From positions 148,342 through 212,341 of the forward strand of contig CAWHFJ010000017.1 in NCBI GenBank assembly GCA_963828495.1: a stretch of 64,000 nt of DNA, given 5' to 3'. Shown here piece after piece: positions 11,403-55,696 of the stretch (position 1 is its first letter; the number at the start of each line of letters is the position of its first letter). Origin of the DNA: Candidatus Omnitrophota bacterium. GTDB lineage: Bacteria; Omnitrophota; Gorgyraeia; Zapsychrales; Fredricksoniimonadaceae. A program made the translations under genes and the position numbers. A model generated the notes under the pieces. The model saw nothing but the letters and a program-made list of their open reading frames with translations. It was not told where the DNA came from and ran no database searches.

Positions 11403-11404
11403 GC

Positions 11405-15600: not shown

Positions 15601-18600
15601 GACAACAGCTATGCCACCGGCAGTGCCGGCGGGAGTGCTAATAATGTCGGCGGCCTTGTGGGGGGTAATGTTGATTCGAGCAGCATTACCAACAGTTTTG
15701 CCACGGGCAGTGTAAGCGGTAGTAGTGCTGTCGGCGGGCTTGTGGGTTACAATGATAATTCAAGCAGCATCGTTAACTCCTATTACACCGACTCCAATCA
15801 TGAAAATGGTCTTGGCATATTTGAATCCGGCGGTGCTGCGGCTTTTTATTCTCCTGCAAACCCGGTTTATGCGATAGGTACGGCAGGTGGGTGGGATATC
15901 TTTACGCCTCTATGGGATACCTATATAGATGAATTGCCTCGTCTACACTGGGAACATCATTCAGGCAACTTTGTGCCTTACTGGCTAGGGACAAGTTCCA
16001 ACGATTTTGATACCGCATCTAACTGGTCTGATAATTCTGTGCCGGGGAGTAGTTCAACGGTCATCATCGCCAACGCAAGCAATGAACCCACCCTTAATGA
16101 AATCACCACATTAGCTAATTTTTTTATAGGTTCCGGCACCTTCACTCAAAATAATGCTCTGACGTTAACTGGTAACTATGCCCAGGCTGGCGGGACATTC
16201 AATCAAAACGCCACCCTTTCTGTTGAAGGCAACTTTTTTCAAAGTGGTGGTATTTTTACCTCACCGCCCGCCAATACTTTTACAGTAGGCAACAATTTTT
16301 CTTTAACCGGAGGCACATTCAGCCGTTTTACTGGTTTGGGTACAGGGCAAAATCCGTATCTTATTTATGATGTCTACGGCCTTGAAGGGATGGGAGGCTT
16401 TCTCTCAAGCGCCTTTGAACTTGGCCATGACATTGATGCATCAACCACAAGCAACTGGAACACAGGGGCAGGATTTACTCCTATTGGAAACAACTCTATA
16501 CAATTTAATAGCACCTTTAACGGTAACAACTACACGATTTCTAATTTATTCATCAATCTGCCATCAACGAATGATGTGGGTTTGTTCGGGTATACGTGGG
16601 GAGCTATCCTTGAGAATGTCGGGCTTCTTCATGCCAACATCACGGGACAAAATAATGTCGGCGGGCTTGTTGGTAGCAATTATTATTCAAGCCTCGCCAA
16701 CAGCTATGTCACCGGCAGCGTCAGCGGAAATGGTAATGATGTCGGCGGACTTGTTGGGTTAAATCAAAATTCAAGCATCGTCAACAGCTATGCCACTGAC
16801 AGTGTAAGTGTAAGCGGCCCGCCTGGGAATTCATATGCAGGAGGCCTTGTTGGTTATAATGTTAATTCAAGCAGTATCAACAATAGCTATGCCACCGGCA
16901 ATGTAAGCGGATTTTTTTATGTCGGCGGGCTTATTGGTGGCAATTTTTATTCAAGCAGCATCGACAACAGCTATGCCGCAGGCAGCGTAAGCGGCACTGC
17001 TAATTGTGTCGGCGGCCTTGTGGGTGATAATTCTTCAAGCAGCATTGCCAACAGCTATGCCATTGGCAATGTCAGCGGTGCTGGTTATGTCGGCGGCCTT
17101 ATTGGTGAAAATTATTCAAGCAGCATTGCCAACAGCTATGCCACTGGCCATGTCAGCGCTGGTAGTTATGTTGGAGGCCTCGTTGGTTATAATGCTAATT
17201 CAAGTAGCATTGACAACAGCTATGCCGCCGGCAGTGTCAGCGGGAGTGCTAATAATGTCGGCGGGCTTGTTGGTGATAATTCTTCAAGCAGCATTGCCAA
17301 TAGTTATGCTACTGGATTGATATCCGGATCAACAAACGTTGGAGGATTGGTAGGGTATGATAGCGGCGGCACGTATACCGCTAACTTTTTTAACAATACT
17401 GTCAATTCATTATTGACAGGCACGGGCAATAATAGCAATGTCTCAGGCATCAGTGGCGAATCTACGGCTAATATGCAAACCACATCTGCTTTTACGGGGG
17501 CCGGTTGGGACTTTAATGGTCTTTGGGCGATCAATACTAATGAATATCCGCATCTCTTGTGGCAGGACATGGGAGACGGCAGTGCTTTTATCGGAGGGAC
17601 CAGTGCGCATCCGTTCCAGATTTCTAATGTGAATCAACTGCAGTTTATGGGCTATGCCACAAGCGATTATTTCCAATTAGCTTCTGCTATTGACGCCAAT
17701 GCCACCTCCGGCTGGAATGCCGGGGCAGGGTTTACTCCCATTGAAGGATTCACCGGCACCTTCAACGGTAATAATTACACGATATCTAATTTATTCATCA
17801 ATCTTCCGACAATGAATGGTGTAGGACTGTTTGGGCAAACTTCAGAAGCTACCATTGAGAATGTCGGATTAGTCGATGCCAATATTACGGGACAAAATGG
17901 AGTCGGTAGCCTTGTGGGTTATAATTTTAATTCAAGCAACATCGACAATAGCTATGCCACTGGCAGTGTAAGCGGGAGCAATCAAGTCGGCGGCCTTGTT
18001 GGTTTAGCTCGTTGGGATTCAACCATCGCCAACAGCTATGCCACCGGCAATGTAAGCGGTAGTAGTGATGTTGGCGGCCTTGTGGGTAGTAATTATTTAG
18101 GCAGCATCGACAACAGCTATGCCACCGGCAGTGTCAGCGGGAGTGGTAGTATCGGCGGCCTTGTGGGTGAAAATGATTATTCAGGCAGTATCGCCAACAG
18201 CTATGCCACCGGTAATGTGAGCGGGAGTAATCAAGTCGGCGGCCTTGTTGGTGATAATAATACTAATTCTAGCAGCATCGTCAACAGCTTTGCCACTGGC
18301 AGTGTTAGCGCCAGTAGTAATGTCGGCGGCCTTGTTGGGTATAATCAGTCCGGCAGTATCAACAATGCCTATTACACCGACTCCAATCATCAAAATGGCC
18401 TTGGCACCTTTGAACCCGGCGGTGCCGCGGCCTTTTATTCTCCCGGGCATCCGGTTTATGCTATAGGTACGCCAGGCGAGTGGGATATCTTTACTCCCCT
18501 ATGGGACACCTATACGGACCAACTGCCTCATTTACATTGGGAACATCATTCAGGCAATTTCACTCCTTACTGGTTGGGGACAAATTCCGGTGATTTTGAT

Positions 18601-21600
18601 ACGGCATCCAACTGGTCTAATGATGCTGTGCCGGGCATTGGCTCAACGGTGATCATTTATAGCGGCGCCAATGACCCCACCCTCAGTACCACTACCACAT
18701 TAGCCAATTTACTTATAGACTCCGGGACCTTTACTCAAAATGGTGATCTGACCTTGTCTGGTCAATATGGCCAAGCTGGGGGAACATATGATCAAAACGC
18801 CAATCTTGCTATTGGCGGCAACTTCTCGCAAAGTAGCGGTACCTTTGTTTCCGACACCACCAAGACTTTCACAGTGGGCAATAGTTTTTCTTTAACGGGG
18901 GGAACATTCAGCCGTTTTACTGGTTTGGGAACAGGCATTGACCCGTATCTTATTTATGACGTTTATGGGCTTGAAGGGATGAGAGGATTTCTTTCGAGTA
19001 CGTTTGGGCTTGCCAACAATATTGATGCATCAGCTACGAGCAACTGGAATTTAGGAGCAGGATTTACTCCTATTGGCAACAGTTCTGCAGGATTTATCGG
19101 CACCTTCAATGGTAACAATTACACTATTTCTAATTTATTCATTAATCTTCCTACAGCAAGTAATGTCGGCCTTTTTGGGTATACATGGAGAGCTACTATT
19201 GAGAATGTCGGATTAATCAATGCCAATATCACGGGACAAAATAATGTCGGTGCCCTTGTTGGCGTAAATCAGTATTTAAGCAACATTGATAACAGTTATG
19301 CCACCGGCAGTGTAAGCGGAAATAATGGTAATAATATCGGCGGCCTTGTTGGTTACAATGTTAATTCAAGCAGCATCGACAACAGCTATGCCACCGGTAG
19401 TGTAAATGGGAATACTAGTGTCGGCGGCCTTGTGGGTATGAATAATTATAGAATCAGCATCAACAACAGCTATGCTACAGGCAGTGTAAACGGGAATTAT
19501 AATGTCGGCGGCCTTGTTGGGTATAATTATAATTCAAACACCATTGCCAATAGCTATGCCACCGGCAATGTCAGCGGGAGTAATCAAGTCGGCGGCCTTG
19601 TTGGGTATAATTATAATGCAAACAGCATTACCAACAGCTATGCCACCGGCAATGTCAGCGGGAGTAATCAAGTCGGCGGCCTTGTTGGTCAAAATAATTA
19701 TAGAATCAGCATCGACAACAGCTATGCCACCGGCAATGTCAGCGGGAGTAGCAGTATCGGCGGCCTTGTTGGTGGAAGTTATAATTCATGCAGCATTGAT
19801 AACAGTTATGCCAGCGGTAGTGTAACTGGGAATAATCAAGTCGGTGGCCTTGTAGGTTATAATTCTTATTCAAACATCACCAACAGCTTTGCCGCTGGCA
19901 GTGTAAGCGGAAGTAGTAGTGTCGGCGGCCTTGTGGGTTATAATTATTATTCTAACATCACCAACAGCTTTGCTGCTGGCAGTGTTAGCGGAAGTAGTGA
20001 TGTCGGCGGCCTTGTTGGATATAATCAGTCAGGCAGTATCAACAATGCCTATTACACGGACTCCAATTATCAAAATGGCCTTGGCACCTTTGAACCCGGC
20101 GGTGCCGCGGCCTTTTATTCTCCCGGGCATCCGGTTTATGCTATAGGTACGCCAGGCGAGTGGGATATCTTTACTCCCCTATGGGATACCTATACGGACC
20201 AACTGCCTCATTTACATTGGGAACATCATTCAGGCAACTTCACTCCTTACTGGTTGGGGACAAATTCCGGTGATTTTGATACGGCATCCAACTGGTCTAA
20301 TGATGCTGTGCCGGGCATTGGCTCAACGGTGATCATTTATAGCGGCGCCAATGACCCCACCCTCAGTACCACTACCACATTAGCCAATTTACTTATAGAC
20401 TCCGGGACCTTTACTCAAAATGGTGATCTGACCTTGTCTGGTCAATATGGCCAAGCTGGGGGAACATATGATCAAAACGCCAATCTTGCTATTGGCGGCA
20501 ACTTCTCGCAAAGTAGCGGTACCTTTGTTTCCGACACCACCAAGACTTTCACAGTGGGCAATAGTTTTTCTTTAACGGGGGGAACATTCAGCCGTTTTAC
20601 TGGTTCGGGAACAGGCATTGACCCGTATCTTATTTATGACGTCTATGGACTCCAAGCGATGGAAGATTATCTGTCGAGCACAACGTTTGGACTTGCCAAT
20701 AACATTGATGCAACAGGAACAAGCAACTGGAATTCTGGTACAGGATTTTCCCCCGTTGGCAACAGCACGACCCCTTTCACCGGCACCTTTGACGGCAACA
20801 GTTACACGATATCTGATTTATTCATCAATCTCCCCTCAACGAGTAACGTAGGATTATTTGGATATACATCAGGAGCCACTTTAGAAAATGTCGGGCTTTT
20901 AAATATTAATATAACGGGAGGGAATTCAGTCGGCGCCCTTGCTGGTTTTATTGCTTATTCAAGCAATATCGACAATAGTTATGCCACAGGTAGTGTAAGC
21001 GGGAGCGGTAATGGAGTCGGCGGTCTTATCGGTTACAGTGATCTTTCAAACAGCATCACTAACAGTTATGCTACTGATAGTGTAAGCGGTAGTAGTTCTG
21101 TTGGCGGTCTTGTTGGGGATAATGTCAATGGAAGTAGTATTACCAACAGCTATGCCACCGGTAATGTAAGACTTACGGATAGTGGTGGGGCTAATGTTGG
21201 TGTCGGCGGTTTGGTCGGCTTTAATGGCTGGGGAAGTAGTATCAGCAATAGCTATGCCATTGGTAGTGTTAGCGGTGGTTATAGTGCAATCGGTGGTCTT
21301 GTTGGTTCTAATGCTTGGGGGGCTAGCATTGCCAACAGCTATGCCACCGGCAGTGTCAGCGGTGGCTATAATGATTTCGGTGGCCTAGTTGGTAGTAATA
21401 CTTATGGAGGAAGCATCACCAACAGCTATGCCACCGGTAGTGTAAGTGGATATGAAGATGTTGGAGGACTTGTTGGGTACAACAGTAATTCAAGTAGTAT
21501 AGCCAACAGCTATGCCGTTGGCAGTGTAAGCGGTGGCAGTAATGTCGGCGGGCTTATAGGATCTTACGACGGCAATAGCACTCTGACGAATAACTGGTGG

Positions 21601-22992
21601 TACAATTCCCTGAGCAATGGTATTGGTAATACTGGTCCCAATACAAGCGTTGGGCATTGGCAGGAGGCTGCCAGCGCTAGCGCTTTCTTTAATACCTCTA
21701 ATCCTGTCTATACGGGAGGGGCTCCCTGGGATTTCACTAATACCTGGCTGGCCACAGGTGTTATGTATCCCGATCTCCTCTTCTTGTATAATATTTGGTC
21801 CGGCTCCGGCAACTGGTCTGATGCCGCCAACTGGAGCAAGAATATTGTGCCGACTGCAATGAGCAAGGTTTTGTTTAATGCCACAAGCCTGGATGATTCA
21901 ACCATTGATGCTTTTGGAGGCAACATCGGCAGTCTTGTGATCACATCCGGCTATACCGGCAACATTGCTCAAAGCAATGACCTGACTTTATCTAGTAACT
22001 ACATTCAAAATGGCAGCACATTCAATCAAAATGCCAATCTTTCTATTAATGGCAACTTCTTTCAGACTGGCGGTGCTTTTATTTCCGACACCACTAAAAC
22101 TTTTACAGTGGGCAATAGTTTTTCTTTAAGTGGAGGGACATTCAACCGATTTACTGGTTTGGGTACAGGATTAGACCCGTATCTTATTTATGACGTTTAT
22201 GGACTCCAAGCGATGGAAGATTATGTGTCGAGCACCACTTTTGAACTTGCCAATAACATTGATGCAACAGGGACAACGAACTGGAACTCAGGCGCAGGAT
22301 TTACTCCCGTTGGCAACAGCACGACACCTTTCACCGGTACTTTCAACGGCAACAATTACACGATATCAAATTTATTCATCGATCTTCCAACAACGAATGG
22401 TGTAGGTCTTTTGGGGTATACATCAGGGGCTACTATAGAGAACGTCGGACTGGTAAATGCTAATATCACGGGACAAAATAATGTTGGTGCGCTTGTTGGT
22501 TATAGTAATACTTCAAGCAGCATCGATAATAGTTATGCCACCGGTATTATAAGTGGTAATACTAATGTAGGCGGCCTTGTTGGCACTAATTATAGTTCAA
22601 GCAGCATCGCCAACAGCTATGCCACCAGCAGTGTAAGCGGCAGTAGTTACGTCGGTGGCCTTGTTGGTTATAATCATTCAAGCAGCATCGACAATAGCTA
22701 TGCCACCGGCAATGTAAATGGAAGCGGGAGTGGTAATCAGGTCGGTGGCCTTGTTGGTTATAATAATCATTCAAGCAGCATCGACAACAGCTATGCCACA
22801 GGCAATGTCAGCGGGAGTGGTGGTAATGTCGGCGGCCTTGTTGGTAACAATGATATTCAAACAGCATCGTCAACAGCTATGCCACCGGCAGTGTCAGCGG
22901 TAGTTATAATGTCGGCGGCCTTGTTGGCACTAATTATGGTTCAAGCAGCATCGCCAACAGCTATGCCACTGGCAGTGTCAGTGGGAGTGTGA
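12625..22992 (+). CDS. longest uninterrupted part of the TpsA-like gene (signal peptide, TPS domain, arrays 1-7); the last ~46 codons are out of frame
   Basis: 3455-aa ORF. The GLUG frame is lost at ~22855 (gatattcaa versus the usual gattattcaa), after which the ORF reads ...QTASSTAMPPAVSAV... Confidence 0.85.
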   Translation: MKKIIHCITAIAFFFLSIVPSPGFAFNVNVVQGNATVSTNGNTVTITATGRAILQGNTSIPSGVTVDVIQGVNDIMLRDITGSRTDILGSLLSNGNIILINAMGIFIGQSANVNVGGLIASTLDMKNNLFMSGNYQFEKIPGLNPAEILNEANINIANGGYIILLADRVVNKGTITAYMGTVALGSGQQATVSFDQGGLVNLVIDQGLAQQLTNSSGKSKAQIVNSGKIYANGGRIQMTAELLETTLEQIVNNTGVLQANNVAEQGGIVELTASGAINNSGTIQAASMIEQAETFHSTGVLDVGHGYFNNLDGAINISGSISGTIADVGDIDLTGAVSLTGDTTLQADSGGAQSGEIVMNTNPLTGNNFNLTMYTGENDTLDGSITGVNLLTLNSSTVNDKIFTSTGASFSVNTLQTNNYALFSRYQGNGTSSDPYMIYSDSPVWGGLEYIVNTPNAYYELANNINAADTSSWNSGAGFTPIGNSSTPFKGTFNGNNYTISNLFINLSSTNDVGLFGYTSGATIKNVGLVNAHITGQNYVGSLVGFNYNASTIDNSYATGSVSGSGNIVGGLVGENDYLSSIVNSYATGNVSGNNEVGGLVGRNYYTSSITDSYATGNVSGNNTVGGLVGYNIRSGLIDNSYAVGNVSGSGNQVGGLVGYNNNLGSITNSYATGSVSGNNDVGGLVGRNYYSNIDNSYATGSVSAGSNVGGLVGSNSYSSIDNSFATAGVNGSSNVGGLVGSNYLSSINNSYYTDSNNQNGLGTFESGGPSAFYNSSHAVYNGDTPWDFNGLWKDGAGLAYPTLVWQGMNNGSFIGGTPAIPFLIYNVNQLQFMDYELSASFQLASDIDASAASVWNADSGFTPVGNSSTPFTGTFNGNIYTISNLFINLPSTDNVGLFGYTSGAGIENTGLINANITGQNNVGALVGLSTNSSSIIGSYAAGSVSGSGDQVGGLVGYNLNSSSVANSYATDSVSGGANVGSLVGRNYNSSIDNSYATGSAGGSANNVGGLVGGNVDSSSITNSFATGSVSGSSAVGGLVGYNDNSSSIVNSYYTDSNHENGLGIFESGGAAAFYSPANPVYAIGTAGGWDIFTPLWDTYIDELPRLHWEHHSGNFVPYWLGTSSNDFDTASNWSDNSVPGSSSTVIIANASNEPTLNEITTLANFFIGSGTFTQNNALTLTGNYAQAGGTFNQNATLSVEGNFFQSGGIFTSPPANTFTVGNNFSLTGGTFSRFTGLGTGQNPYLIYDVYGLEGMGGFLSSAFELGHDIDASTTSNWNTGAGFTPIGNNSIQFNSTFNGNNYTISNLFINLPSTNDVGLFGYTWGAILENVGLLHANITGQNNVGGLVGSNYYSSLANSYVTGSVSGNGNDVGGLVGLNQNSSIVNSYATDSVSVSGPPGNSYAGGLVGYNVNSSSINNSYATGNVSGFFYVGGLIGGNFYSSSIDNSYAAGSVSGTANCVGGLVGDNSSSSIANSYAIGNVSGAGYVGGLIGENYSSSIANSYATGHVSAGSYVGGLVGYNANSSSIDNSYAAGSVSGSANNVGGLVGDNSSSSIANSYATGLISGSTNVGGLVGYDSGGTYTANFFNNTVNSLLTGTGNNSNVSGISGESTANMQTTSAFTGAGWDFNGLWAINTNEYPHLLWQDMGDGSAFIGGTSAHPFQISNVNQLQFMGYATSDYFQLASAIDANATSGWNAGAGFTPIEGFTGTFNGNNYTISNLFINLPTMNGVGLFGQTSEATIENVGLVDANITGQNGVGSLVGYNFNSSNIDNSYATGSVSGSNQVGGLVGLARWDSTIANSYATGNVSGSSDVGGLVGSNYLGSIDNSYATGSVSGSGSIGGLVGENDYSGSIANSYATGNVSGSNQVGGLVGDNNTNSSSIVNSFATGSVSASSNVGGLVGYNQSGSINNAYYTDSNHQNGLGTFEPGGAAAFYSPGHPVYAIGTPGEWDIFTPLWDTYTDQLPHLHWEHHSGNFTPYWLGTNSGDFDTASNWSNDAVPGIGSTVIIYSGANDPTLSTTTTLANLLIDSGTFTQNGDLTLSGQYGQAGGTYDQNANLAIGGNFSQSSGTFVSDTTKTFTVGNSFSLTGGTFSRFTGLGTGIDPYLIYDVYGLEGMRGFLSSTFGLANNIDASATSNWNLGAGFTPIGNSSAGFIGTFNGNNYTISNLFINLPTASNVGLFGYTWRATIENVGLINANITGQNNVGALVGVNQYLSNIDNSYATGSVSGNNGNNIGGLVGYNVNSSSIDNSYATGSVNGNTSVGGLVGMNNYRISINNSYATGSVNGNYNVGGLVGYNYNSNTIANSYATGNVSGSNQVGGLVGYNYNANSITNSYATGNVSGSNQVGGLVGQNNYRISIDNSYATGNVSGSSSIGGLVGGSYNSCSIDNSYASGSVTGNNQVGGLVGYNSYSNITNSFAAGSVSGSSSVGGLVGYNYYSNITNSFAAGSVSGSSDVGGLVGYNQSGSINNAYYTDSNYQNGLGTFEPGGAAAFYSPGHPVYAIGTPGEWDIFTPLWDTYTDQLPHLHWEHHSGNFTPYWLGTNSGDFDTASNWSNDAVPGIGSTVIIYSGANDPTLSTTTTLANLLIDSGTFTQNGDLTLSGQYGQAGGTYDQNANLAIGGNFSQSSGTFVSDTTKTFTVGNSFSLTGGTFSRFTGSGTGIDPYLIYDVYGLQAMEDYLSSTTFGLANNIDATGTSNWNSGTGFSPVGNSTTPFTGTFDGNSYTISDLFINLPSTSNVGLFGYTSGATLENVGLLNINITGGNSVGALAGFIAYSSNIDNSYATGSVSGSGNGVGGLIGYSDLSNSITNSYATDSVSGSSSVGGLVGDNVNGSSITNSYATGNVRLTDSGGANVGVGGLVGFNGWGSSISNSYAIGSVSGGYSAIGGLVGSNAWGASIANSYATGSVSGGYNDFGGLVGSNTYGGSITNSYATGSVSGYEDVGGLVGYNSNSSSIANSYAVGSVSGGSNVGGLIGSYDGNSTLTNNWWYNSLSNGIGNTGPNTSVGHWQEAASASAFFNTSNPVYTGGAPWDFTNTWLATGVMYPDLLFLYNIWSGSGNWSDAANWSKNIVPTAMSKVLFNATSLDDSTIDAFGGNIGSLVITSGYTGNIAQSNDLTLSSNYIQNGSTFNQNANLSINGNFFQTGGAFISDTTKTFTVGNSFSLSGGTFNRFTGLGTGLDPYLIYDVYGLQAMEDYVSSTTFELANNIDATGTTNWNSGAGFTPVGNSTTPFTGTFNGNNYTISNLFIDLPTTNGVGLLGYTSGATIENVGLVNANITGQNNVGALVGYSNTSSSIDNSYATGIISGNTNVGGLVGTNYSSSSIANSYATSSVSGSSYVGGLVGYNHSSSIDNSYATGNVNGSGSGNQVGGLVGYNNHSSSIDNSYATGNVSGSGGNVGGLVGNNDIQTASSTAMPPAVSAVVIMSAALLALIMVQAASPTAMPLAVSVGV
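12700..13500 (+). other. TPS (haemagglutination-activity-type) secretion domain of TpsA
   Basis: It follows the signal peptide MKKIIHCITAIAFFFLSIVPSPGFA. The sequence is NVVQGNATVSTNGNTVTITATGRAILQGNTSIP...ILGSLLSNGNIILINAMGIFIGQSANVNVGGLIASTLDM, matching the NPNGI / N-x-x-G-x-x-x-N pattern of TpsA N-termini. Domain boundaries are approximate. Confidence 0.75.
18322..18962 (+). repeat. intragenic segmental repeat, copy 1 (linker class B)
   Basis: Near-identical to 20002-20642 at a 1,680-bp offset. I count about 7-8 mismatches in ~640 bp. Confidence 0.85.
20002..20642 (+). repeat. intragenic segmental repeat, copy 2 (linker class B)
   Basis: See 18322-18962. Confidence 0.85.
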
Positions 22993-24432
22993 ATGTCGGC
23001 GGCCTTGTTGGTAATAATAACTATTCAAGCAGCATCACCAACAGTTTTGCCACTGGCAATGTAACCGGCAGTGGTAGTTTCGGCGGGCTTATAGGTTATG
23101 ATGACGGCACCAACACCCTGACAAATAATTGGTGGTACAATTCCCTGAGCAATGGCATAGGCAACAATGCTTCCAATATAAATGTTGGGCATTGGCAAGA
23201 GGCGGGCAGTGCCAGTGATTTCTTTAATCCGTCCCAAGCTGTTTACAATGGCACAAGTCCTTGGGACATCTCATCAACAACCGGTCATATCTGGGCGATG
23301 TCGGGTGAGAATAATGCTTTCCCACTATTACAATTCAGATATGCCACCACTATCGAGGATGCGTATCAACTTCAGTTGATGTTTCTTGATTTAGGAGCGA
23401 CTTACACCGTAGCTAATAATATTGATGCCACCCAGACTCTAAGCTGGAATTTGGGAGCAGGATTTATTCCTATTGGAAACAGCTCCTCACCATTCACCGG
23501 CACCTTCAACGGCAACAATTATACGATATCTAATTTATTTATTAATCTTCCCTCAATGAATGATGTCGGCCTGTTCGGGCAGACATCAGGAGCTACCATT
23601 GAAAATGTCGGACTGGTTAATGCTACTATCACGGGACAAAATAATGTCGGTGGCCTTGCTGGTTCTAGTTATAATTCAAGCAGCATTGACAACAGCTATG
23701 CCACCGGCAGTGTAAACGGGAATGGTAATAGGTCGGCGGCCTTGTTGGTTTTCTTTGGGGAGGCAGTATTTACAATAGCTATGCCATAAGCAGTGTTAGC
23801 GGGATTAATAATGTCGGAGGACTAGTTGGTGGAAATCAAAATTCAAGTATCACCAACAGTTATGCCACAGGCAGTATAAGCGGAAGTGGCAATTCTGTCG
23901 GCGGCCTTGTTGGTTTTAATTATAATTCAAGCATAGACAACAGTTATAGTACTGGCAGTGTAAGCGGCGGTGGCCCTTATGTTGGCGGACTTGTTGGATA
24001 TGAAGGGCATATAAGCAGCATCGACAACAGCTATGCCACAGGCAGTGTAAATGGGAGTGCTTATGGAGTTGGGGGCCTTGTTGGTTGGATGAATACTTCA
24101 AGCAGCATCGACAACAGCTATGCCACTGGCAGTGTAAGCGGTAATAATTCTGTCGGAGGCCTTGTTGGTCAAAATACTAGTTCAAACAACATTGCCAATA
24201 GCTATGCCACCGGCAGTGTAAGCGGCAGTAGTAACGTCGGCGGGCTTATAGGGAATGACGATGGCACTAACACCCTGACGAATAACTGGTGGTACAATTC
24301 CCTGAACAATGGTATAGGAAACTATGGCCCCAATACAAGCGTTGGGCATTGGCAGGAGGCTGCCAGCGCCAGTGCTTTCTTTAACACCTCTAATCCTGTC
24401 TATACGGGAGGGACTCCCTGGGATTTCACTAA

Positions 24433-25250
24433 TACCTGGCTGGCCACAGGTGTTACGTATCCCGATCTTCTCTTCTCTTATAATATCTGGTCCGGCTCCG
24501 GCAACTGGTCTGATGCCGCCAACTGGAGCAAGGATATTGTACCGACTGCAATAAGCAAGGTTTTGTTTAATGCCACAAGCCTGGATGATTCAACCATTGA
24601 TGCTTTTGGAGGCAACATCGGCAGTCTTGTGATCACATCAGGCTATACCGGCAGCATTGCTCAAAATAATGACCTGACTTTATCAGGTAGCTACATTCAA
24701 ACCGGCGGGACATTCAATCAAAACGCCAATCTTTCCATCGGCGGCAGTTACATTAATGCCGAAGGGGCTTTCAATGCCGGGACTCAACCCGTTACTTTCA
24801 CAGGTTCAGGAACAATTACCTCCGGCAGCACTGTGTTTAACAACTTAAATGTCAATGCTACAGGGACCTATACCGTAACGGATGGGATCGCAGCCACAGG
24901 CAATTTCACCCAAACAAGCGGTATCTTTATCGCTGATCCGACACAAACAACATTCTCTGTTGGCGGGAGCTTCTCTTTGCAAGGAGGAGAATTCAACAGA
25001 TTCACAGGCTCAGGGACAGGAGGAGATCCGTATCTTATCTATGATATTTACGGCCTTCAAGGGATGGGAGGATTTCTCTCAAACACATTTGGCCTTCACA
25101 ATGACATTGATGCATCAACTGCAAGCAGCTGGAATTCTGATACAGGATTTACTCCCGTTGGCAACAGCTCTACGCCATTTACCGGCACCTTCAACGGCAA
25201 CAGTTACACGATTTCTAATTTATTCATCAATCTTCCGACAACGAATGATG
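24433..25250 (+). repeat. intragenic segmental repeat, copy 1 (linker class C)
   Basis: About 98% identical by eye (~15 mismatches in ~820 bp) to 25921-26738 at a 1,488-bp offset. A more diverged third copy starts at 21741. Confidence 0.85.
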
Positions 25251-25920
25251 TAGCTCTGTTCGGGTATACATCAGGAGTTACTATTGAAAATGTGGGACTT
25301 CTTAACGCTAACATCACAGGATCTGGTTTTGTGGGGAGTCTTGTTGGGTATAATAAAAACTCAAGTAACATCGATAACAGCTATGCCACCGGCAGTGTAA
25401 GCGGTGGCAGTTTTGTTGGAGGTCTTATTGGTTGTAATTTTAATTCAAGCAGCATCGCTAACAGTTATGCCACTGGCAGTGTAACCGGGAGTTATGGTGT
25501 CGGCGGACTTGTTGGTTATAATTCTTATTCAAACATCACCAACAGCTATGCCACCGGCAATGTAGACAGCACTGGTAATGATGTCGGCGGGCTGGTGGGT
25601 TATAATGAAGGTTCTGGTCAAATCGATGACAGCTATGCCACCGGCAGTGTCAGCGGGAGTAATTATGTCGGCGGCCTTATTGGTTATAATAATGCATATT
25701 CTTACACCTCTAACAGCTATGCTACGGGCAATGTCAGCGGTAGTAGTAATGTTGGTGGGCTTGTTGGTTATGCTTCTAATTCAAACAGCTTTGTTAACTC
25801 TTACTACACAGACTCTAATCATCAAAATGGCCTTGGCACCTATGATTCCGCCGGCCCAAGTGATTTTTTCAATCCCTCTAATCCTGTTTACACAGGATCC
25901 ACTCCCTGGAATTTTACTAC

Positions 25921-26738
25921 TACCTGGCTGGCCACAGGTGTTATGTATCCCGATCTTCTCTTCTCTTATAATATCTGGTCCGGCTCCGGCAACTGGTCTG
26001 ATGCCGCCAACTGGAGCAAGGATATTGTACCGACTGCAATAAGCAAGGTTTTGTTTAATGCCACAAGCCTGGATGATTCAACCATTGATGCTTTTGGAGG
26101 CAACATCGGCAGTCTTGTGATCACATCAGGCTATACCGGCAGCATTGCTCAAAATAATGACCTGACTTTATCCGGTAGCTACGTTCAAACCGGCGGGACA
26201 TTCAATCAAAACACCAATCTTTCCATCGGTGGCAGTTACATTAATGCCGGAGGGGCTTTCAATGCCGGGACTCAACCCGTTACTTTCACAGGTTCAGGAA
26301 CAATTACCTCTGGCAGCACTGTGTTTAACAACTTAAATGTCAATGCTACAGGGACCTATACCGTAACGGATGGGATCGCAACCACAGGCAATTTCATCCA
26401 AACAAGCGGTATCTTTATCGCTGATCCGACACAAACAACATTCTCTGTTGGCGGGAGCTTCTCTTTGCAAGGAGGAGAATTCAACAGATTCACAGGTTCA
26501 GGCACAGGAGCAGACCCGTATCTTATCTATGATATTTATGGCCTTCAAGGGATGGGAGGATTTCTCTCAAACACATTTGGCCTTCACAATGACATTGATG
26601 CATCAACTGCAAGCAGCTGGAATTCTGATACAGGATTTACTCCCATTGGCAACAGCTCTACGCCATTTACCGGCACCTTCAACGGCAACAGTTACACGAT
26701 TTCTAATTTATTCATCAATCTTCCGACAACGAATGATA
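25921..26738 (+). repeat. intragenic segmental repeat, copy 2 (linker class C)
   Basis: See 24433-25250. Confidence 0.85.
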
Positions 26739-29520
26739 TAGGCCTGTTCGGGTATACATCAGGAGCTACTATTGAAAATGTCGGGCTTCTTAACGTCAAT
26801 ATTACAGGACAAAATGGAGTCGGTGCCCTTGTGGGTTATAGTAATAATTCAAGCAGCATCGACAATACCTATGCCACAGGCAGGGTAAGCGGCGGGAGTT
26901 ATGGTGCCGGCGGCCTTGTTGGTTATAATGGAAATTCAAGCAGTATCGACAACAGCTATGCCACAAGCAATGTAAGTGGGACTTATGGTGTCGGTGGTCT
27001 TGTTGGTTATAATGAAAATTCAAGCAGCATCGATAACAGCTATGCCACTGGTAGTATAAATGGTAATGGTAATGTCGGTGGCCTTGTTGGTGGCAATGGT
27101 TCAAGCATCGCCAACAGCTATGCCACAGGCAGTGTAAGCGGAAGTAGTAATATCGGCGGCCTTGTTGGTAATAGTTCTTTGGGCAGCATCACTAACAGTT
27201 ATGCCACTGGTAGTGTTAGTGGTTATGGTCTTGATGATGTTGGCGGCCTTGTGGGTTATAATTATTCAAGTAGCATCAGCAATAGTTATGCCACTGGCAG
27301 TGTAAACGGAAATAGTCAAGTCGGCGGCCTTGTTGGGTTATAATTATTCAAGCAGTATCGACAATAGCTATGCCACGAGCAATGTAACCGGCGGTAGTGA
27401 TGTCGGCGGGCTTATAGGATATGACGATGGCTCTAGCACTCTGACAAATAACTGGTGGTACAATTCTTTGAATAATGGCATAGGAAACTATGGCCCTAAT
27501 ACAAATAGCGGGCAATGGCAGAAGGCTGGCAGCGCTGGTGATTTCTTATAGCTCTACACAGGCGGTATATTCAACTTGGGACTTTAACGGTTTATGGAAA
27601 GACGGTGCAGGACTTGCGTATCCTACCCTAATATGGCAGGACATGAACAATGGCCCCTTTATCGGCGGCACTGGGCCCATTCCTTTTCTTATTCATAATG
27701 TGAATCAACTGCAGTTTATGGACTATGAGCCCAGCGCATCCTTCCAATTAGCTTCTGATATTGACGCTAGTGCCACCTCTGGCTGGAATGCTGATGCAGG
27801 ATTTACTCCCATTGGAAACAGCTCTACACCGTTCACCGGCACTTTTAACGGCAACAGTTACACGATATCTAATTTATTCATTAATCTTCCAACAACAAAT
27901 GGTGTAGGTCTTTTTGGGTATACATCAGGAGCGACTATAGAGAATGTTGGACTTATCAATGTTAATGTCACGGGAGGAGAAAATTGGGTCGGCAGCCTTG
28001 TGGGTATAGTAAAAATTCAACCACCATCGACAATAGCTATGCCACCGGCAGTGTAAGCGGGAGTGAGAATACGTTGGTGGTCTTGTTGGCCTTAATTGGT
28101 CAGGCAGCAGTATCACTAACAGTTATGCCACAGACACTGTAAGCGGCGGTAATCTTGTCGGCGGCCTTGTTGGATATAATGTTGATCAAACATCACCAAT
28201 AGCTATGCCACTGGTAGTGTAAACGGTGGTGATAATACTGGTGGCCTTGTTGGTGGTAATGATTCTAGCAGTATCGCCAATAGTTATGCCACAGGTAGAG
28301 TAAGTGGCATTGGTGGTATTCGTGCCGGTGGCCTTGTTGGCCTTAATTGTTCAGGCAGCATCACTAACAGCTATGCAACTGGCAATGTAAGTGGTGATGG
28401 TTAAGTCGGAGGCCTTGTTGGTGACAATTTCTATTCAAGCAGCATCGATAACAGCTATGCCACCGGCAGTGTAAGCGGGAGTAATTATGTCGGCGGCCTT
28501 GTTGGTCAAAATACTAATTCAAGCAGCATCACTAATAGTTTTGCCACGGGCAGTGTAAGCGCCAGTAGTAATGTCGGCGGCCTTGTTGGTTACAATGATA
28601 CTTCAAGCAGCATCAATAACTCTTACTACACCGACTCTAATAATCAAAATGGCCTTGGTATTTTCGAACCTGGCGGTGCCGCAGCCTTTTATTCTCCCGG
28701 GAACCCGGTTTATGCTATAGGTACGGCAGGCGAGTGGGATATCTTTACTCCCCTATGGGATACCTATACGGACCAATTGCCTCATCTACATTGGGAACAT
28801 CATTCAGGTGATTCGACGGCTTATTGGCTGGGGACAAACTCTAGCGATTTTGACACGGCTTCCAACTGGTCTGATGGCTCTGTGCCGGGCATTGGCTCAA
28901 CGGTCATCATTTATAGTGGGGCCTATGAACCCATCCTTAGTGAAACAACCACATTAGCTAATTTACTCATGGACTCCGGCACCTTCACTCAAGACGGGGC
29001 CTTGACATTGTCTGGTAACTATGGCCAAGCTGGGGGGGCATATAATCAAAACGCCGATCTTTCTATTGGCGGTAATTTTTCTCAGAGTGGCGGTACTTTT
29101 GTTTCTGACACCACCAAGACTTTTACAGTGGGCAACAGTTTTTCTTTAACGGGAGGGACATTCAGCCGCTTTACTGGTTTAGGTACAGGGGGAAATCCAT
29201 ATCTTATTTATGACGTTTATGGCCTTGAAGGGATGGAAGGATTTCTCTCGAGCACGTTTGGACTTGGCGATAACATTGATGCATCAGCTACGAGTAATTG
29301 GAACGCGGGTGCAGGATTTACTCCTATTGGGAATAACTCCACACCATTCACCGGCACCTTCAATGGCAACAGTTACACGATATCTAATTTATTCATCAAT
29401 CTTCCGTTAACAAATAGTGTTGGTCTGTTTGGAGAGATCGTAGGAGCTGCCGTTGAGAATGTCGGACTGATAAGTGCTAATATCACGGGAGAAAATAACG
29501 TTGGCGCTCTTATCGGTTAT

Positions 29521-29763
29521 ACTAATTCAAGCAGCATTACCAACAGCTACGCTGCTGGCAATGTAAGCGGTAATAATGAAGTCGGCGGCCTTGTTGGTTA
29601 TACTAATTCAAGCAGCATTACCAACAGCTACGCTGCTGGCAATGTAAGCGGCAATAATGAAGTCGGCGGCCTTGTTGGTTATACTAATTCAAGCAGCATT
29701 ACCAACAGCTACGCTGCTGACAGTGTAAACGGTAATAGTCAAGTCGGCGGCCTTATTGGTGGT
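29521..29763 (+). repeat. near-perfect 81-bp tandem repeat (three GLUG units, YTNSSSITNSYAAGNVSGNNEVGGLVG)
   Basis: Units start at 29521, 29602 and 29683. The first two differ at one position (ggt versus ggc); the third diverges in its second half. Confidence 0.85.
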
Positions 29764-32700
29764 AATTATAATTCAAGCATTGCCAACAGCTATGCCGCTG
29801 GCAGTGTAAGCGGTAGTAGTGATGTCGGCGGCCTTGTGGGTTATAGTTATTATTCAAACATCGCCAACAGCTATACCGCTGGCAGTGTAAGCGGTAGTAG
29901 TCAAGTCGGCGGTCTTATTGGTGGTAATTATAATTCAAGCATTGCCAACAGCTATGCCGCTGGCAGTGTAAGCGGAAGTAGTCAAGTCGGTGGCCTTATT
30001 GGTGGTAATTATACTTCAAGCATCGACAACAGCTATGCTACAGGCAATATAAGCGGGAATAATGCTGTCGGCGGTCTTGTTGGTTTTAATCAAAGTTCAA
30101 GCCGTATCACCAACAGCTATGCCACTGGCAGTGTAAGTGGTAGTAGCCAAGTCGGCGGCCTTGTTGGTTACAATGTTAATTCAAGCAGCATCACCAATAG
30201 CTATGCTACAGGCACTGTAAGCGGAGGGATTGAAAGTGAAGGAGTGGGCGGTCTTGTTGGTTACAATGTTAATTCAAGTAATATCGACAACAGCTATGCC
30301 ACTGGCAGTGTAAGCGGTGCTAATTATATCGGTGGCCTTGTTGGTTTTAATCAAAGTTCAAGCCGTATCACCAACAGCTATGCTATTGGCACTGTCAGCG
30401 GGGGGATTGAAAGTGCGTGGATAGGCGGTCTTGTTGGTTACAATGGCAATTCAAGCAGCATCACCAATAGCTATGCTACAGGCCCTGTAAGCGGTGCTAA
30501 TTATATCGGTGGCCTTGTTGGAAAAAATTATTGGTATTCAACCATCGCCAACAGCTATGCCACTGGCAATGTAAGCGGTAATAGTGATGTTGGCGGCCTT
30601 GTTGGTGCGAATGATTATTATTCAAGCATAACCAACAACTTTACCACCGGCACTGTCAGCGGGACTGGTAATCAAGTCGGCAGCCTTGTGGGTTATAATA
30701 ATAATTCAAGCAACATTGATAATGCCTATTACACCGACTCCAATCATCAAAATGGCCTTGGCACCTTTGAAGCCGGCGGTGCCGCAGCTTTTTATTCTCT
30801 CGCAAATCCGGTCTACGCTATAGGTACGGCAGGCGGGTGGGACGTCTTTACTCCCATATGGGATACCTATACGGACCAATTGCCTCATCTGCATTGGGAA
30901 AACCATTCAGGCAACTTGAACTTTTTATGGCTGGGAACAAATTCCAGCGATTTTGATACAGCTTCCAACTGGTCTACAGGTTCAGTACCTGGCATTGGCT
31001 CAACGGTTATCATTTATAGTGGGATCAATGAACCTACTCTTAGTGACAGTACTACATTCGCTAATTTGTTCCTAGGCTCAGGGATCTTCACTCAAGATGC
31101 GGTTTTGACTTTAACCGGTAACTATGGTCAGATCGGCGGCATATTTAATCAAAATGCCAATCTTTCTGTTGGAGGCAATTTCTCTCAGAGTGGTGGGGCT
31201 TTTATTTCAGACATCACTAAGACTTTTACAGTAGGTAACAGTTTTTCTTTAACGGGAGGGACATTCAACCGATTCACTGGTTTGGGAACAGGAATGGACC
31301 CATATTTTATTTATGACGTCTACGGCCTTGAAGGGATAGGAGGATTTCTTTCGAGTACGTTTGAACTTGGCCATAACATTGATGCGTCAAGCACAAGCAA
31401 CTGGAACTCAGGCGCAGGGTTTAGTCCCATTGGAGAATTCACCGGCACCTTTAACGGCAACAATTACACGATTTCTAATTTATTCATCAATCTCCCATCA
31501 ACGAATAATATTGGACTGTTTGGGTATACATACCAAGCCAGCATTGAGAATGTCCAGCTTCTTAATGCCAACATCACGGGACAAAATAATGTCGGCGCAC
31601 TCGTGGGTTTAAGTACTAATTCAAGCAGCATTGCCAACAGCTATGCCACCGGCAGTGTCAGCGGTAATAGTACTGTCGGCGGCCTTGTTGGTTATAATGG
31701 TAATTCAAGCAGCGTCGACAACAGCTATACCACCGTCACTGTTAGCGGGAATAATAATGTCGGCGGTCTGGTTGGTTCTAATGTTAATTCAAGCAGCATC
31801 GCCAACAGTTATGCTACCGGTACTATTAGTGGCGGCAGTAATGTAGGCGGGCTTGTTGGTGCGAATGGTAATTCAAGCAGCGTCGCCAACAGCTATACCG
31901 CCGGCAGTGTCAGTGGTAGTAGTACTGTCGGCGGCCTTGTGGGTTACAATGGTAATTCAAGCAGCGTCGCCAACAGCTATAATACCGGTAGTGTAAGCGG
32001 TAATAGCGGTAGTACCAAAGTCGGCGGCCTTGTTGGCGGGAATTATAATTCAACCATCGATAACAGCTATGCCACTGGTCTCGTTTTGGGAAACGCAAAC
32101 GTCGGGGGATTTGTAGGGTATGATAGTGGCGGCACTTACATTGCTGACTTTTTTGACCATACTATCAATTATTCAATGACGGGCACGGGCAATAATGCCA
32201 ATGTCTCAGGCATCGCCGAAACCACTGCCAACCTGCAAACCAAATCTACTTTCACGAATGCCGGATGGGATTTCAATGGTCTCTGGACAATTAATGGAGG
32301 GACATATCCTTACCTTATCTGGCAAGATATGGACAATGGCGCCTTTATCGGAGGCACGCCTTCTATTCCTTTTCTCATTCATAATGTGAATCAACTGCAG
32401 TTTATGGGCTATGCCCCGAGCGATTCTTTCCAATTAGTTTCTGCTATTGACGCGAGCGCCACTTCCGGCTGGAATAATAATGCAGGATTTACTCCTATTG
32501 GCAACAGCACGACACCATTCACCGGCACCTTCAACGCTAACAGTTACACGATTTCTGATTTATCCATCGATCTCCCAACAACGAATGATGTTGGTCTTTT
32601 TGGGCAGGCTTCAGGATCTACCATTGAAAATGTCGGACTGGTCAATGCTAATATTACGGGGAAAAATAATGTCGGCGCCCTCGTGGGTTTAAATATTAAT

Positions 32701-43018: not shown

Positions 43019-44208
43019 TGGATCAACGGATGGATCTCGTTATTATTGGGCATGTGGACCACGGCAAAAGTACGGTAGTCGGCCGTCTTTTGGCTGATGC
43101 AGGGTTTTTGCCGGATGGCAAATTGCAACAGGTCAAAGAGCGTTGCGTTATGAGTCACAGGCCGTTTGAGTATGCTTTTTTGGTCGATGTGCTTAAAGAA
43201 GAGCAGGCGCGAGGCATCACCCTTGATTCAGCCAGAATTTTCTTTAAAACACAAAAAAGACATTATATGGTCATGGATGCACCGGGCCATACGGATCTGT
43301 TAAGAAACATGGTGACCGGTGCGGCATTGGCTGACGCGGCCATTGTGGTGATTGATGTTAAGGCAGGGGTACAGGAAAATACCCGTCGGCATACGCACTT
43401 GCTGCCTTTATTGGGGGTCGGGCAGGTTCTGGTCGTCGTTAACAAGATGGACCTGGTGGGATTTGCCCAGGAGCCTTTTGAGGCCATGAAAAATGAGTAT
43501 GCCCGCTTTTTGTCACAATTGAATATCCGCTCTTTCGGTTATATTCCTATCAGCGCACGCGAAGGTGATTGTCTGACACGGCATAGCTTACGGATGAGGT
43601 GGTATAACGGGCCGACATTACTTGAAGCGCTCGATCGATTGAGCCCTGCCGTTGAAGATATTAAGGCCCCTTTTCGCATGCCGGTCCAGGATGTTTATAC
43701 GTTTCCGGATTATAGGGACGGATGTCCGCTGATCGCAGGGACACCGACGAGCGGGGTTGCGGCTGTAGGGGATGAGTTGATTTTTTATCCTTCAGGAAAG
43801 ACGGGATTGATAAAGACCATTGAACGTTTCGGCACATCTGCTACCTTAGAAGCAAAAGCAAGAAATTGCGTCGCTTTGACGTTGCAAGAGCCCATTAAGA
43901 CCGCACGCGGTCAATTAGCAGTAAAAAAGACGATGGGTATGCCCCCGTGCGTTGCTTCCAGGATCAGGGTCAATCTTTTTTGGCTGGGATCTGTGCCTAT
44001 GGTCAATGGTCGTGCATACACATTGAAAATCGGTACGGATGAAGTGGGGGTGCAGGTGGAGTCCATTGATGAGGGCATTCTTAAGACAGCCAGGCCGATT
44101 GCATTTGACCTTGCCGGCAGTTTGGCGGGCGCAGGCCGTTTTGTGATTGTTGATGAGCATCGGATCTCCGGAGGTGGAGTAATCCTTGAAACGCTTGAGG
44201 ATCATTGA
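43015..44208 (+). CDS. cysN: sulfate adenylyltransferase subunit 1 (GTPase subunit)
   Basis: G1 [10 protein letters not shown]3 DAPGH, G4 NKMD. EF-Tu-like domain II follows. At 397 aa it is shorter than E. coli CysN and has no fused APS-kinase domain. Confidence 0.85.
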
Positions 44209-44218
44209 TAGGAGAAAA

Positions 44219-45703
44219 ATGAAAATTTTATTGAAAGAAAAGTATTTATTATGGGTACTGGCGGTTATTGTAGGGATGGCTAATCCCTGTCAAGCGTTCG
44301 CGGATGACACTACCACCGCGGCCATTGAAAAACGTCTCAATGATCTGGAACAGCAGGTGGCAGAACTTAAACAAGAACTACAAGAACAAAAGCAAAAAAA
44401 CGCCCAAAATGCCCCGCAAGTAACTCCAACTCCGCCGGCAGCTATTGTTACAGCCAACAGCAAGGATGGATTCTCTATTAAATCAGAGGATGGGAATTAT
44501 AGTCTTAAAATCGGCGGCTATACACAGATAGAAGCCCGTGAATTCGGGGCTAATAATAAGGAAGAATTAGATGAAAACAGCAGTATTTTAGCCCGCCGGG
44601 TCAGGCTTATTGTGCAAGGAACAGTAGCCCGTGATTTCGATTATTATTTACAGCCTGATTTTGGTTACAATAATGCTGTTAGCAACATCACCACCACCAC
44701 TCCAAGCGCGTATGCCGTGGCCCTTCAGGATGCCTGGGTAGATTATAAATATTTCCCTGAAGCTACCATCAAAGCGGGTAAGATGAAAACGCCTTTTGAT
44801 CTGGAAAACTTGCAGGATACCCGGTATACGTCCTTTACTGAATTAGGTTTAACAGGCAATCTTTCTCCTCAGCGGGATATTGGGGCGCAATTAGGCGGAA
44901 GCTTGTTCGACGACATAGTAAATTACGCAGGAGGTATTTATGACGGCGCCGCTGACAAGGAAACCGGCTATGGCGGATACAGCACAGCGGCCGGCGGTGA
45001 TACAAATAATAAAAGCGGTACAGGCCGTATTTTTATTAAACCATTTAAAGATACAGGTATCGGTCCCTTAAGAGGTTTGGGAGTGGGTTATGCGGTCAGT
45101 TATGGTAAACAGAAAGGTAGTGACCTGCCCAGTTTCATAACACCCGGACAAGCGCCGATATTTACTTATAACAGCAACGTGTCTGCAGCCGGTCCGCAGT
45201 TGCGTACAGAACCTCAGGCGTATTATTACTATAAATCATTAGGGATTTTAGCCGAAAAAGTCACTGATCAGGAATCATTGCAATATACCGGCGGCACCGC
45301 CGGCAATCCTATTGTTTATCGTGACAGACCGTATAATGAGGCTTGGGAAGTGACCGGCACCTATGTTTTAACGGGTGAAAATGCCTCTTATAATGGGGTC
45401 ATACCTAATAATGACCTTGATCCGTCTAAAGGTCATTGGGGAGCATTTGAGTTAGCCGGCCGTTACGGAGAGTTAAAGTTAGATAGTTCTATTTTTACTG
45501 AAAATTTTGCCAACTTAAACACGTCCGTATCCTCTGAGAAAGCCTGGGCCATAGGGATCAATTGGTATCTAAACCGGAACGCCAAAGTAGTTTTTGATTT
45601 TGAACAAACCAAGTTTGATCGCGGGGCAGTTAATGGAGAACAAACAGATGATCGTAAAACCGAAAATCTGTTCACCACAATGATTCAGTTGAGTTTAGGC
45701 TAA
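44219..45703 (+). CDS. OprO/OprP-type (phosphate/anion-selective) porin with N-terminal coiled coil
   Basis: ATG at 44219 after an aggag RBS, then a signal peptide (..MANPCQAFA). Coiled coil IEKRLNDLEQQVAELKQELQEQKQK. The body is beta-rich and ends ...MIQLSLG. Family resemblance to Porin_O_P. Confidence 0.7.
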   Translation: MKILLKEKYLLWVLAVIVGMANPCQAFADDTTTAAIEKRLNDLEQQVAELKQELQEQKQKNAQNAPQVTPTPPAAIVTANSKDGFSIKSEDGNYSLKIGGYTQIEAREFGANNKEELDENSSILARRVRLIVQGTVARDFDYYLQPDFGYNNAVSNITTTTPSAYAVALQDAWVDYKYFPEATIKAGKMKTPFDLENLQDTRYTSFTELGLTGNLSPQRDIGAQLGGSLFDDIVNYAGGIYDGAADKETGYGGYSTAAGGDTNNKSGTGRIFIKPFKDTGIGPLRGLGVGYAVSYGKQKGSDLPSFITPGQAPIFTYNSNVSAAGPQLRTEPQAYYYYKSLGILAEKVTDQESLQYTGGTAGNPIVYRDRPYNEAWEVTGTYVLTGENASYNGVIPNNDLDPSKGHWGAFELAGRYGELKLDSSIFTENFANLNTSVSSEKAWAIGINWYLNRNAKVVFDFEQTKFDRGAVNGEQTDDRKTENLFTTMIQLSLG

Positions 45704-45726
45704 AGCACCAAAAAGGAGAAAAAATT

Positions 45727-46608: not shown

Positions 46609-46644
46609 GATAAGTGCCATTGCCGGCAAAGAAAGGGAGCATCC

Positions 46645-48683: not shown

Positions 48684-48693
48684 TCCTATATTA

Positions 48694-48727
48694 CTGTCAT
48701 TCTGAGCGCAGCGAAGAATCCTTAGGC
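48694..48727. repeat. REP-like element, variant 2 (ctgtcattctgagcgcagcgaagaatc.ttaagg)
   Basis: Near-identical copy at 53845-53877. Confidence 0.7.
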
Positions 48728-48729
48728 AC

Positions 48730-48748
48730 ATATCACAATTTGTGATAT
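48730..48748. promoter_or_regulatory. perfect palindrome ATATCACA-att-TGTGATAT, candidate operator
   Basis: 8-bp arms with a 3-nt spacer. A further TTGTGATA half-site at 48833-48840 lies 33 nt before the 48873 ATG. Confidence 0.3.
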
Positions 48749-48790: not shown

Positions 48791-48872
48791 CCAGTAAGCG
48801 TATTAATAATATTATCTTGCCAATACCCATATTTGTGATACATTTGTATATACAAGTGGGTGAAAGAGGATT

Positions 48873-49402: not shown

Positions 49403-49405
49403 AAT

Positions 49406-49432: not shown

Positions 49433-49450
49433 ATCTTATTTGCGCATTTT

Positions 49451-55522: not shown

Positions 55523-55696
55523 ATGGCTATTAATTAATCCATAGAATGGACCGAATCAACGTGGAACCCGGTAACGGGATGCACAAAGACGAGCCGGGGA
55601 TGTCTGCATTGTTACGCTCAGCGGATGGCGCAGCGGTTGGCTCCGGGACGAGAGGGTTTTCATCCCAAAACGAAGCGGATTTTCCAGCGCTCTTGA
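55523..55696 (+). pseudogene. 5-prime fragment of a DUF5131 (phage Gp37/Gp68-like, three-Cys) gene
   Basis: [44 protein letters not shown]... carries the IEWT..TWNPV.GC...S.GC..CYA three-Cys signature. In-frame TAA at 55535. Family similarity is lost after ~55640, and the AT-rich to GC-rich switch falls at ~55546. Confidence 0.55.

Follow-up and report, generated by a model that had tools for sequence, protein, structure and literature searches.

Frameshifts in a giant two-partner-secretion exoprotein gene of a Candidatus Omnitrophota contig probably reflect assembly error rather than gene decay

A stretch of 64,000 nucleotides from a contig of Candidatus Omnitrophota bacterium (CAWHFJ010000017.1, positions 148,342 to 212,341; assembly GCA_963828495.1), hereafter the window, harbours at its positions 12625-39824 a giant gene on the forward strand, tpsA, whose many reading-frame breaks are the subject of this report. 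The gene spans 27.2 kb and, once its frame is restored, encodes a two-partner-secretion (TPS) exoprotein of 9,072 aa. We use the name tpsA because of the TPS domain, the GLUG units and the POTRA_2/ShlB gene found directly downstream. The latter, tpsB, lies at 39834-41606 on the same strand, is intact and encodes an Omp85-type transporter partner which is matched by the Pfam families POTRA_2, ShlB and Omp85. The Pfam TPS domain (PF05860) is found at residues 59-284 of the tpsA product with 43.3 bits against a cut-off of 33.5 (E = 5e-11), and by inspection of the sequence the N-terminus, VKKIIHCITAIAFFFLSIVPSPGFA, resembles a signal peptide; both occur on the first of the fragments into which tpsA is broken, and on that one only. 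A simple search with the pattern NP[NS][GL] for the NPNL/NPNG(I) motifs gave no match in the first 500 residues of TpsA. The domain match is weak, though above the cut-off, and the missing motifs reduce confidence in canonical TpsA membership, leaving confidence in a TPS-like mechanism undiminished. Matches to the Pfam family Glug (PF07581) occur in every tpsA fragment, and a custom hidden Markov model of the GLUG unit counted 153 units in the restored protein, grouped into super-repeats of 1.3-1.7 kb. Judged from this architecture, tpsA is a large but ordinary GLUG-repeat TpsA gene with a TpsB partner. Within it, three pairs of blocks are 97-100% identical (18325-18925 and 20005-20605; 24475-25225 and 25963-26713; 33775-34225 and 35119-35570), a sign of recent duplication inside the gene or of gene conversion; one of the three pairs falls in the lesion-free part of the gene.

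Reading tpsA as one protein takes 14 frame switches and read-through of one TAA codon at 28402-28404. The frame path along 12625-39824 (1>3>2>3>1>3>2>1>3>1>3>1>2>1>3) was derived from a map of stop codons, and the same path was obtained by tracking the motifs VGGLVG and NSYATG. Alignments show that at each lesion site the length differs from that of sibling repeats by a number that is not a multiple of three. An initial annotation of the window had placed about 15 reading-frame lesions in tpsA, and frame switches indeed lie within a few bases of every position it gave, with stop-codon map, motif tracking and sibling alignments in agreement. The TAA which it had called a nonsense codon is the sole in-frame stop left after the frame has been restored at the 14 sites. 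It had also described the first 10.2 kb and the last 3.4 kb of the gene, together with the upstream genes, as free of lesions, and these are unbroken, the upstream genes being densely packed and covered by Pfam over their full length. The view that the lesions are single-nucleotide indels holds for most sites, but the one near 34425 is an insertion of two bases (34423-34424) and those at 28071 and 28186 are complex when set against another assembly. A proposed compensating pair is likewise real, in the form of a +3 pair in which this two-base insertion is joined by a one-base insertion at 34455.

The lesions could be compared with independent assemblies of the same population, made from other samples, whose contigs were found by look-ups of exact products and of clusters. 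These are the ENA assemblies ERZ25039473 (contigs L027 and L034), ERZ25039466 (L029), ERZ25039472 (L030 and L035) and ERZ25039480 (L031, L032 and L033), and the Logan assemblies ERR11630400 (L001 and L038), ERR11571142 (L002 and L037), ERR11523654 (L028 and L039) and ERR10755936 (L036). Following the forward strand, the first lesion is a base missing between GAT and ATT at 22853-22857 (frame 1>3), recognised from sibling alignment and the restored frame; its sole comparator, L033, is frame-broken in the same spacer too, with a different sequence. At 23728-23731 one base is missing (AAT-AGG, 3>2), and AATGATG in L033 restores the frame. The extra G at 27335-27337 (GGG vs GG, 2>3) is absent from L032 and from the Logan k-mer contig L028, in which the reading frame is open across 27336. 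Contig L032 reads TTCT-ATAG where the window has one extra base at 27543-27546 (TTCTTATAG, 3>1), shows a canonical in-frame unit where the window lacks one base at 28003-28006 (TTG-TGGG, 1>3), and is in frame across 28180-28190, where the window has four bases fewer for a net change of -1 (2>1). The spacer at 28066-28073 is short by one base (3>2) according to sibling alignment and the restored frame, and here L032, again the sole comparator, is likewise one base short with a different sequence. Where the window has the TAA, sibling repeats read CAA, TAT or AAT, and L032 reads TAT. Since L033 and L032 are broken within the same few bases at 22853-22857 and 28066-28073, respectively, it may be that these two spacers are error-prone sequence contexts.

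Further downstream, the run of five G at 33871-33875 (1>3) has six G in L030, in L032 and in the 99%-identical paralogous stretch 35162-35273. Contigs L030 and L032 agree with each other against the window at an extra T at 34288-34290 (AATTTC vs AATTC, 3>1), at two extra A at 34423-34424 (GGTAAAG vs GGTAG, 1>3), at the extra base at 34453-34456 which compensates for these (3>1) and at an extra A at 34539-34541 (TTTTAAATT vs TTTTAATT, 1>2). The long G run at 35115-35120 (2>1) counts six G in the window and seven in L030, which restores the frame; at 35117, L032 has eight G without the A and so has the same length as the window. The last lesion is a missing T at 36383-36385 (ATGC-GC, 1>3), where L030 and L031 both have ATGCTGC and a single open reading frame of 1,508 aa in L030 crosses 36384. 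A three-way alignment of 30300-35990 placed indels with L030 and L032 united against the window at 33871, 34290, 34423-4, 34455 and 34540, and no further indel was found in this span at which the two agree against it. Altogether, 12 of the 15 tpsA sites are frame-preserving in all available comparators and one more (35117) in one of two, and at the remaining two (22855 and 28071) the sole comparator is also frame-broken. No window lesion was found in identical form in any comparator assembly. The initial annotation had allowed that the lesions might prove heterogeneous within the population, which would speak against its own proposal, and this is what the comparison reveals.

The noisy ENA assemblies break tpsA at other places than the window, and more often. 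By a count of the minimal number of frame switches, the 12.1 kb of tpsA covered by L032 contain at least 32 lesions there and 10 in the window; for the 9.2 kb of L030 these numbers are at least 13 and 5, and for the 7.5 kb of L033 at least 19 and 2. Even tpsB, which is included in the stretch 39011-42357 over which L001 and L002 are 100% identical to the window, is split in L031. Because each assembly has its own lesion set, the frameshifts in tpsA are assembly-specific. A further site, 48506, was considered as a window lesion and was ruled out, since one Logan contig and another contig from ENA support the window: the ENA contig_58673 (L027) has a T run lengthened by one T, which cuts the open reading frame 47136-48683 from 515 to 458 aa, and the C-terminus given by the window, which is correct here, is shared by the Logan product P0265 (L039) and by P0266. 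Exact-product look-ups of lesion-bounded reading frames gave no match in one case, which was uninformative; the 188-aa product of 27490-28056 is recorded for no contig other than the source contig. A search of the GTDB species genomes with TpsB found a best match of 48% identity in an Omnitrophota metagenome-assembled genome, the species itself not being represented there. The repaired 33.6-36.6 kb segment, when used in a word-indexed protein search, gave no near-identical fragment among the matches listed, which were mostly long GLUG proteins of other organisms, none above ~1,760 aa. Two scans of JGI metagenomes with patterns across the lesions at 36384 and 33873 gave no match.

The lesions had been thought to be confined to the middle of tpsA, and this is not the case, as cysD carries two and a transporter gene three, both genes being intact elsewhere. 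In cysD (42139-43018, forward strand) one base is missing at 42508 (CCC vs CCCC) and another at 42887 (GC-CGG vs GCACGG), such that three-frame reading follows the gene through frame 1, then 3, then 2. Repair of the two deletions gives 293 aa, the length of nearly all 120 listed homologues, and the repaired CysD equals the product P0122 from L027 except for one residue that had been guessed. Contigs L027, L028 and L029 all have the extra C at 42508 and the extra A at 42887, and the window differs from L027 in cysD by these two indels and one synonymous single-nucleotide polymorphism (SNP). The sodium:dicarboxylate symporter gene (Pfam SDF; 49451-50674, reverse strand) has indels at 49913, 50161 and 50267-50268, which split it into three reading frames bearing consecutive parts of the SDF profile, with profile positions 1-99 and 235-387 on separate frames. 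Intact copies are present in the ENA contig L034, with 402 aa, and in Logan L039, with 407 aa; the repaired window gene encodes 402 aa, a sequence absent from the protein collection consulted. Contigs L034 and L039 preserve the frame at all three sites, as does L035 at the single site which it covers. All five sites outside tpsA are thus intact in other assemblies, and the damage shows a hallmark of assembly error: conserved single-copy genes are affected and their repair yields full-length proteins. Within the SDF gene, the stretch 49634-50534 contains 18 SNPs and three indels private to the window, and its flanks of 2.5 kb and 1.9 kb are identical to the Logan contig L039, so that the transporter gene seems to have a divergent or recombinant haplotype here. 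The differing codons comprise 10 synonymous and 6 non-synonymous ones, which indicates that this allele evolved as a working gene.

Real decay of the gene interior, leaving a secreted product of ~3,400 aa, had been put forward in the initial annotation as one of two possible pictures. The tests of this idea were unfavourable to it. Scores of the GLUG-unit model average 30.8 in the lesion zone (n=81) and 30.7 in the intact C-terminal part (n=15; p = 0.93). Substitutions between assemblies in 30.3-36 kb fall on codon positions 1, 2 and 3 of the restored frame in the numbers 57, 66 and 109 (chi-square p = 5e-5), and this third-position excess implies that purifying selection acts on the restored tpsA frame. 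A single nonsense codon stands against 14 indels in the gene. Changes private to the window in 30.3-36 kb comprise 6 indel events and 14 substitutions, and a ratio of 6:14 is far above expectation between natural strains. Neither motif erosion, nor an even spread over codon positions, nor a set of accompanying nonsense codons, as relaxed constraint would bring, was therefore found in tpsA. Lesions common to close relatives or fixed in the population, which are the hallmark of a pseudogene, were not seen among the comparators. With the lesions absent elsewhere, the motif intact and the codon positions biased, we do not follow the proposal of interior decay.

The second picture was that of locally poor consensus in the most repetitive stretch of the gene, and here part of the proposal survives. 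The lesions are truly clustered, as the probability of finding none in the first 22.85 kb under a uniform rate is ~3e-4. However, the identity of repeats to their best sibling is 0.79-0.87 both in the intact N-terminal repeats and in the lesion zone, blocks of 97-100% identity are present in both, and tiles with lesions are not more repetitive than tiles without (0.79 vs 0.76). The lesion zone is thus not the most repetitive stretch, and repetitiveness was rejected as the cause of the clustering. The clusters at 27.0-28.5 kb and in the SDF patch coincide with strong divergence between assemblies; those in cysD and at 33.8-34.6 kb, where five lesions lie inside 0.7 kb, do not. We infer that the patchiness stems from local coverage or from strain mixing during consensus building or polishing. 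Locally poor consensus is therefore supported by the data, though not through repetitiveness, and it extends to two non-repetitive genes. The uneven distribution had also been offered as an argument against sequencing error, and it is here that we differ: clustered frameshifts would be no evidence against such error, and consensus errors in metagenomes can be strongly patchy.

Taken together, these comparisons of sequence make it likely, to our minds quite strongly so, that this one metagenome assembly owes the 14 frame shifts and the single TAA in tpsA to errors in its consensus and not to decay of the gene. We favour error because the lesions are private to the window and the comparators carry different ones, and because non-repetitive single-copy neighbours carry lesions of the same kind; decay is disfavoured because the GLUG motif is intact, third positions show their bias and there is one nonsense codon per 14 indels. 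If so, tpsA would be a normal intact TPS exoprotein gene of ~9,070 codons, whose product would be exported via the TpsB encoded just downstream. The source would most likely be a population in which several strains co-occur, assembled from long reads (Flye/Nanopore-type). We infer the sequencing technology, which was probably that of a long-read metagenome assembly; the sister ENA assemblies carry Flye-style 'contig_N' names, L030 ends in a fold-back, and a probable chimeric join at 55639 is a further sign of assembly trouble in the source contig. It is documented that long-read consensus sequences contain indels by which gene calls are fragmented, above all where coverage is below ~40x (PMC9262707).

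A number of points weigh against this interpretation. The error calls rest on the comparison of assemblies, which would prove no single base to be erroneous. Since the comparators were taken from other samples and differ by 0.1-5%, a real lesion private to one strain would look the same. Those from ENA are error-prone themselves, as illustrated by position 48506 where the window is right and L027 wrong, and at 22855 and 28071 the sole comparator is broken in the same spacer. The patchiness of the lesions is unexplained by repetitiveness and would be only partly explained by strain divergence. Several lesions (36384 and 42887 among them) lie outside homopolymers. Finally, the Logan contigs which are 100% identical to the window over 39011-42357 end just before the first downstream lesion.

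The lesions could instead be real and private to one strain, with tpsA, cysD and the SDF gene recently inactivated there and intact in its sister strains, in which case at most an N-terminal TpsA fragment of 3,455 aa would be left. The lesions are, after all, truly present in the deposited sequence, they are clustered and not evenly spread, those of the SDF gene sit inside the window-private haplotype patch with its 18 SNPs, and the window is otherwise accurate where it can be checked, matching Logan contigs at 100% identity over the stretches 39011-42357 and 47059-49633 and being right at 48506. Even so, we consider this unlikely. Three unrelated genes would need to have undergone 20 independent frame-breaking events in very recent time and hardly any substitutions alongside, as in cysD with its two indels and one synonymous SNP. 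Loss of tpsA in this way would have to be reconciled with just one nonsense codon per 14 indels and no motif decay, and the loss of the transporter with codons which mark the SDF allele as that of a working gene. No lesion is common to the window and any relative, and the different frameshifts in the sister assemblies show that such breaks arise technically. In its fullest form the argument would be that a free-living bacterium, probably of the PVC group, recently lost its GLUG adhesin (down to a secreted stub of at most 3,455 aa), its cysD-dependent sulfate activation and its dicarboxylate transporter, with poly-G tracts maybe acting as on/off switches. On the sequence evidence that would be a distinctly improbable history; were it true, the window would capture a natural population in the act of losing genes by indels at an unusually high rate.

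Phase variation as the origin of some lesions, with the distal part of TpsA turned on or off by slipped-strand changes in the poly-G tracts at 33871-33875 (G5/G6) and 35115-35120 (G6/G7/G8), seems to us very improbable. Other bacteria are known to switch adhesin genes by way of homopolymers, and tract length does vary between assemblies at both sites, with three states at 35117. However, only two of the 15 tpsA lesions lie in long runs, the others being in runs of 1-3 bases or complex, and the lesions upstream would make switches downstream of them irrelevant. Runs of 6-8 G are, moreover, a known weak spot of long-read consensus calling (PMC9262707). The idea that no single gene is broken, each fragment being a gene of its own or programmed frameshifting linking them, deserves next to no credence. 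Long open reading frames with a possible start codon are found among the fragments, several in number, but repeat units are interrupted midway by the frame switches and carry on seamlessly in the new frame, the TPS domain and signal peptide are found on the first fragment alone, the sites have no common slippery motif and other assemblies read through them.

The surroundings of tpsAB offered several further observations. Sulfur-related genes lie on both sides (8796-12517 and 41616-44208), with two arylsulfotransferase-like genes and a TauE exporter gene upstream and APS kinase, cysD and cysN downstream, and a rubrerythrin gene is found on either side as well (8796-9272 and 46645-47139). An insertion sequence element with HTH_Tnp_1 and rve transposase genes occupies L027 8781-10186, corresponding to window position 49027-49030; neither the window nor Logan L039 contains it, and its flanking alignments overlap by 4 bases on the window. 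In L031 the stretch 14201-15463 is without window segments 41737-45711 (cysD, cysN and a porin gene) and 46611-54174, so the region downstream of tpsB is structurally variable between strains. Repeat content of tpsA also differs between strains, as implied by the Logan contig L028 (ERR11523654), whose first 1786 bases are a mosaic of the tpsA 3' end with the reading frame open throughout: its bases 1-515 are 94.6% identical to window 27019-27534, and bases 524-1497 only 85% identical to 38586-39556. At the end of contig L030, bases 9192-11860 are a reverse-complement copy of window 39444-36753, a fold-back which suggests a contig assembled from very few long reads.

Further along the window there is a break in synteny, accompanied by a jump in G+C content, at 55639..55640. 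Four other assemblies (two from ENA, two from Logan) match the window to exactly 55639, inside a DUF5131 gene, and then diverge, carrying DUF5131 and methyltransferase genes past this point. In the window, G+C content rises here from ~0.40 to 0.60-0.75, and 55639-64000 encodes TPR and FG-GAP/ASPIC proteins. A scan for tRNA genes as an integration site found none, and a look-up of the FG-GAP protein of the high-GC part found nothing on record. The sequence comparison makes it probable that the source contig was joined chimerically at 55639, or that foreign DNA was inserted there.

The main value of the finding about tpsA lies in the caution which it calls for. In the form deposited with NCBI and ENA (232,791 nt), the contig shows the 9,072-codon tpsA as a dozen or so fragments, and cysD and the transporter gene as broken. 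Such breaks would mislead pseudogene counts, metabolic reconstruction (here of assimilatory sulfate activation) and catalogues of giant proteins.

Several known systems invite comparison with what we describe. The system resembles those of the FhaB/FhaC type in its signal-peptide-like N-terminus, its TPS domain, its long repetitive passenger and the POTRA_2/ShlB gene directly downstream; it differs in that the passenger is made of GLUG units instead of FHA-type repeats, in the absence of NPNL/NPNG by pattern search, and in size, TpsA having ~9,070 aa, far from the ~3,600 aa of FhaB. Many proteins annotated as 'filamentous hemagglutinin family' or 'GLUG motif-containing' combine PF05860 with PF07581 as TpsA does (for example P0160, P0175 and P0176), but among the matches listed the closest relatives are 59-64% identical and none exceeds 1,757 aa. 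Adhesin pseudogenes of host-restricted pathogens share with the window sequence a large repetitive surface-protein gene with frameshifts and a stop; in tpsA, unlike in these, the lesions are not common to relatives, purifying selection is evident, the motif has not decayed and housekeeping neighbours are affected. Frameshift artefacts of long-read, Nanopore-type sequencing (Sereika et al. 2022, PMC9262707) are unlike the present case in that several lesions here lie outside homopolymers and are strongly clustered. They are like it in consisting of indels of 1-2 bases, many of them in short or long homopolymers, which split genes; the lesions described here differ from one assembly to the next and are absent from k-mer or short-read-type contigs.

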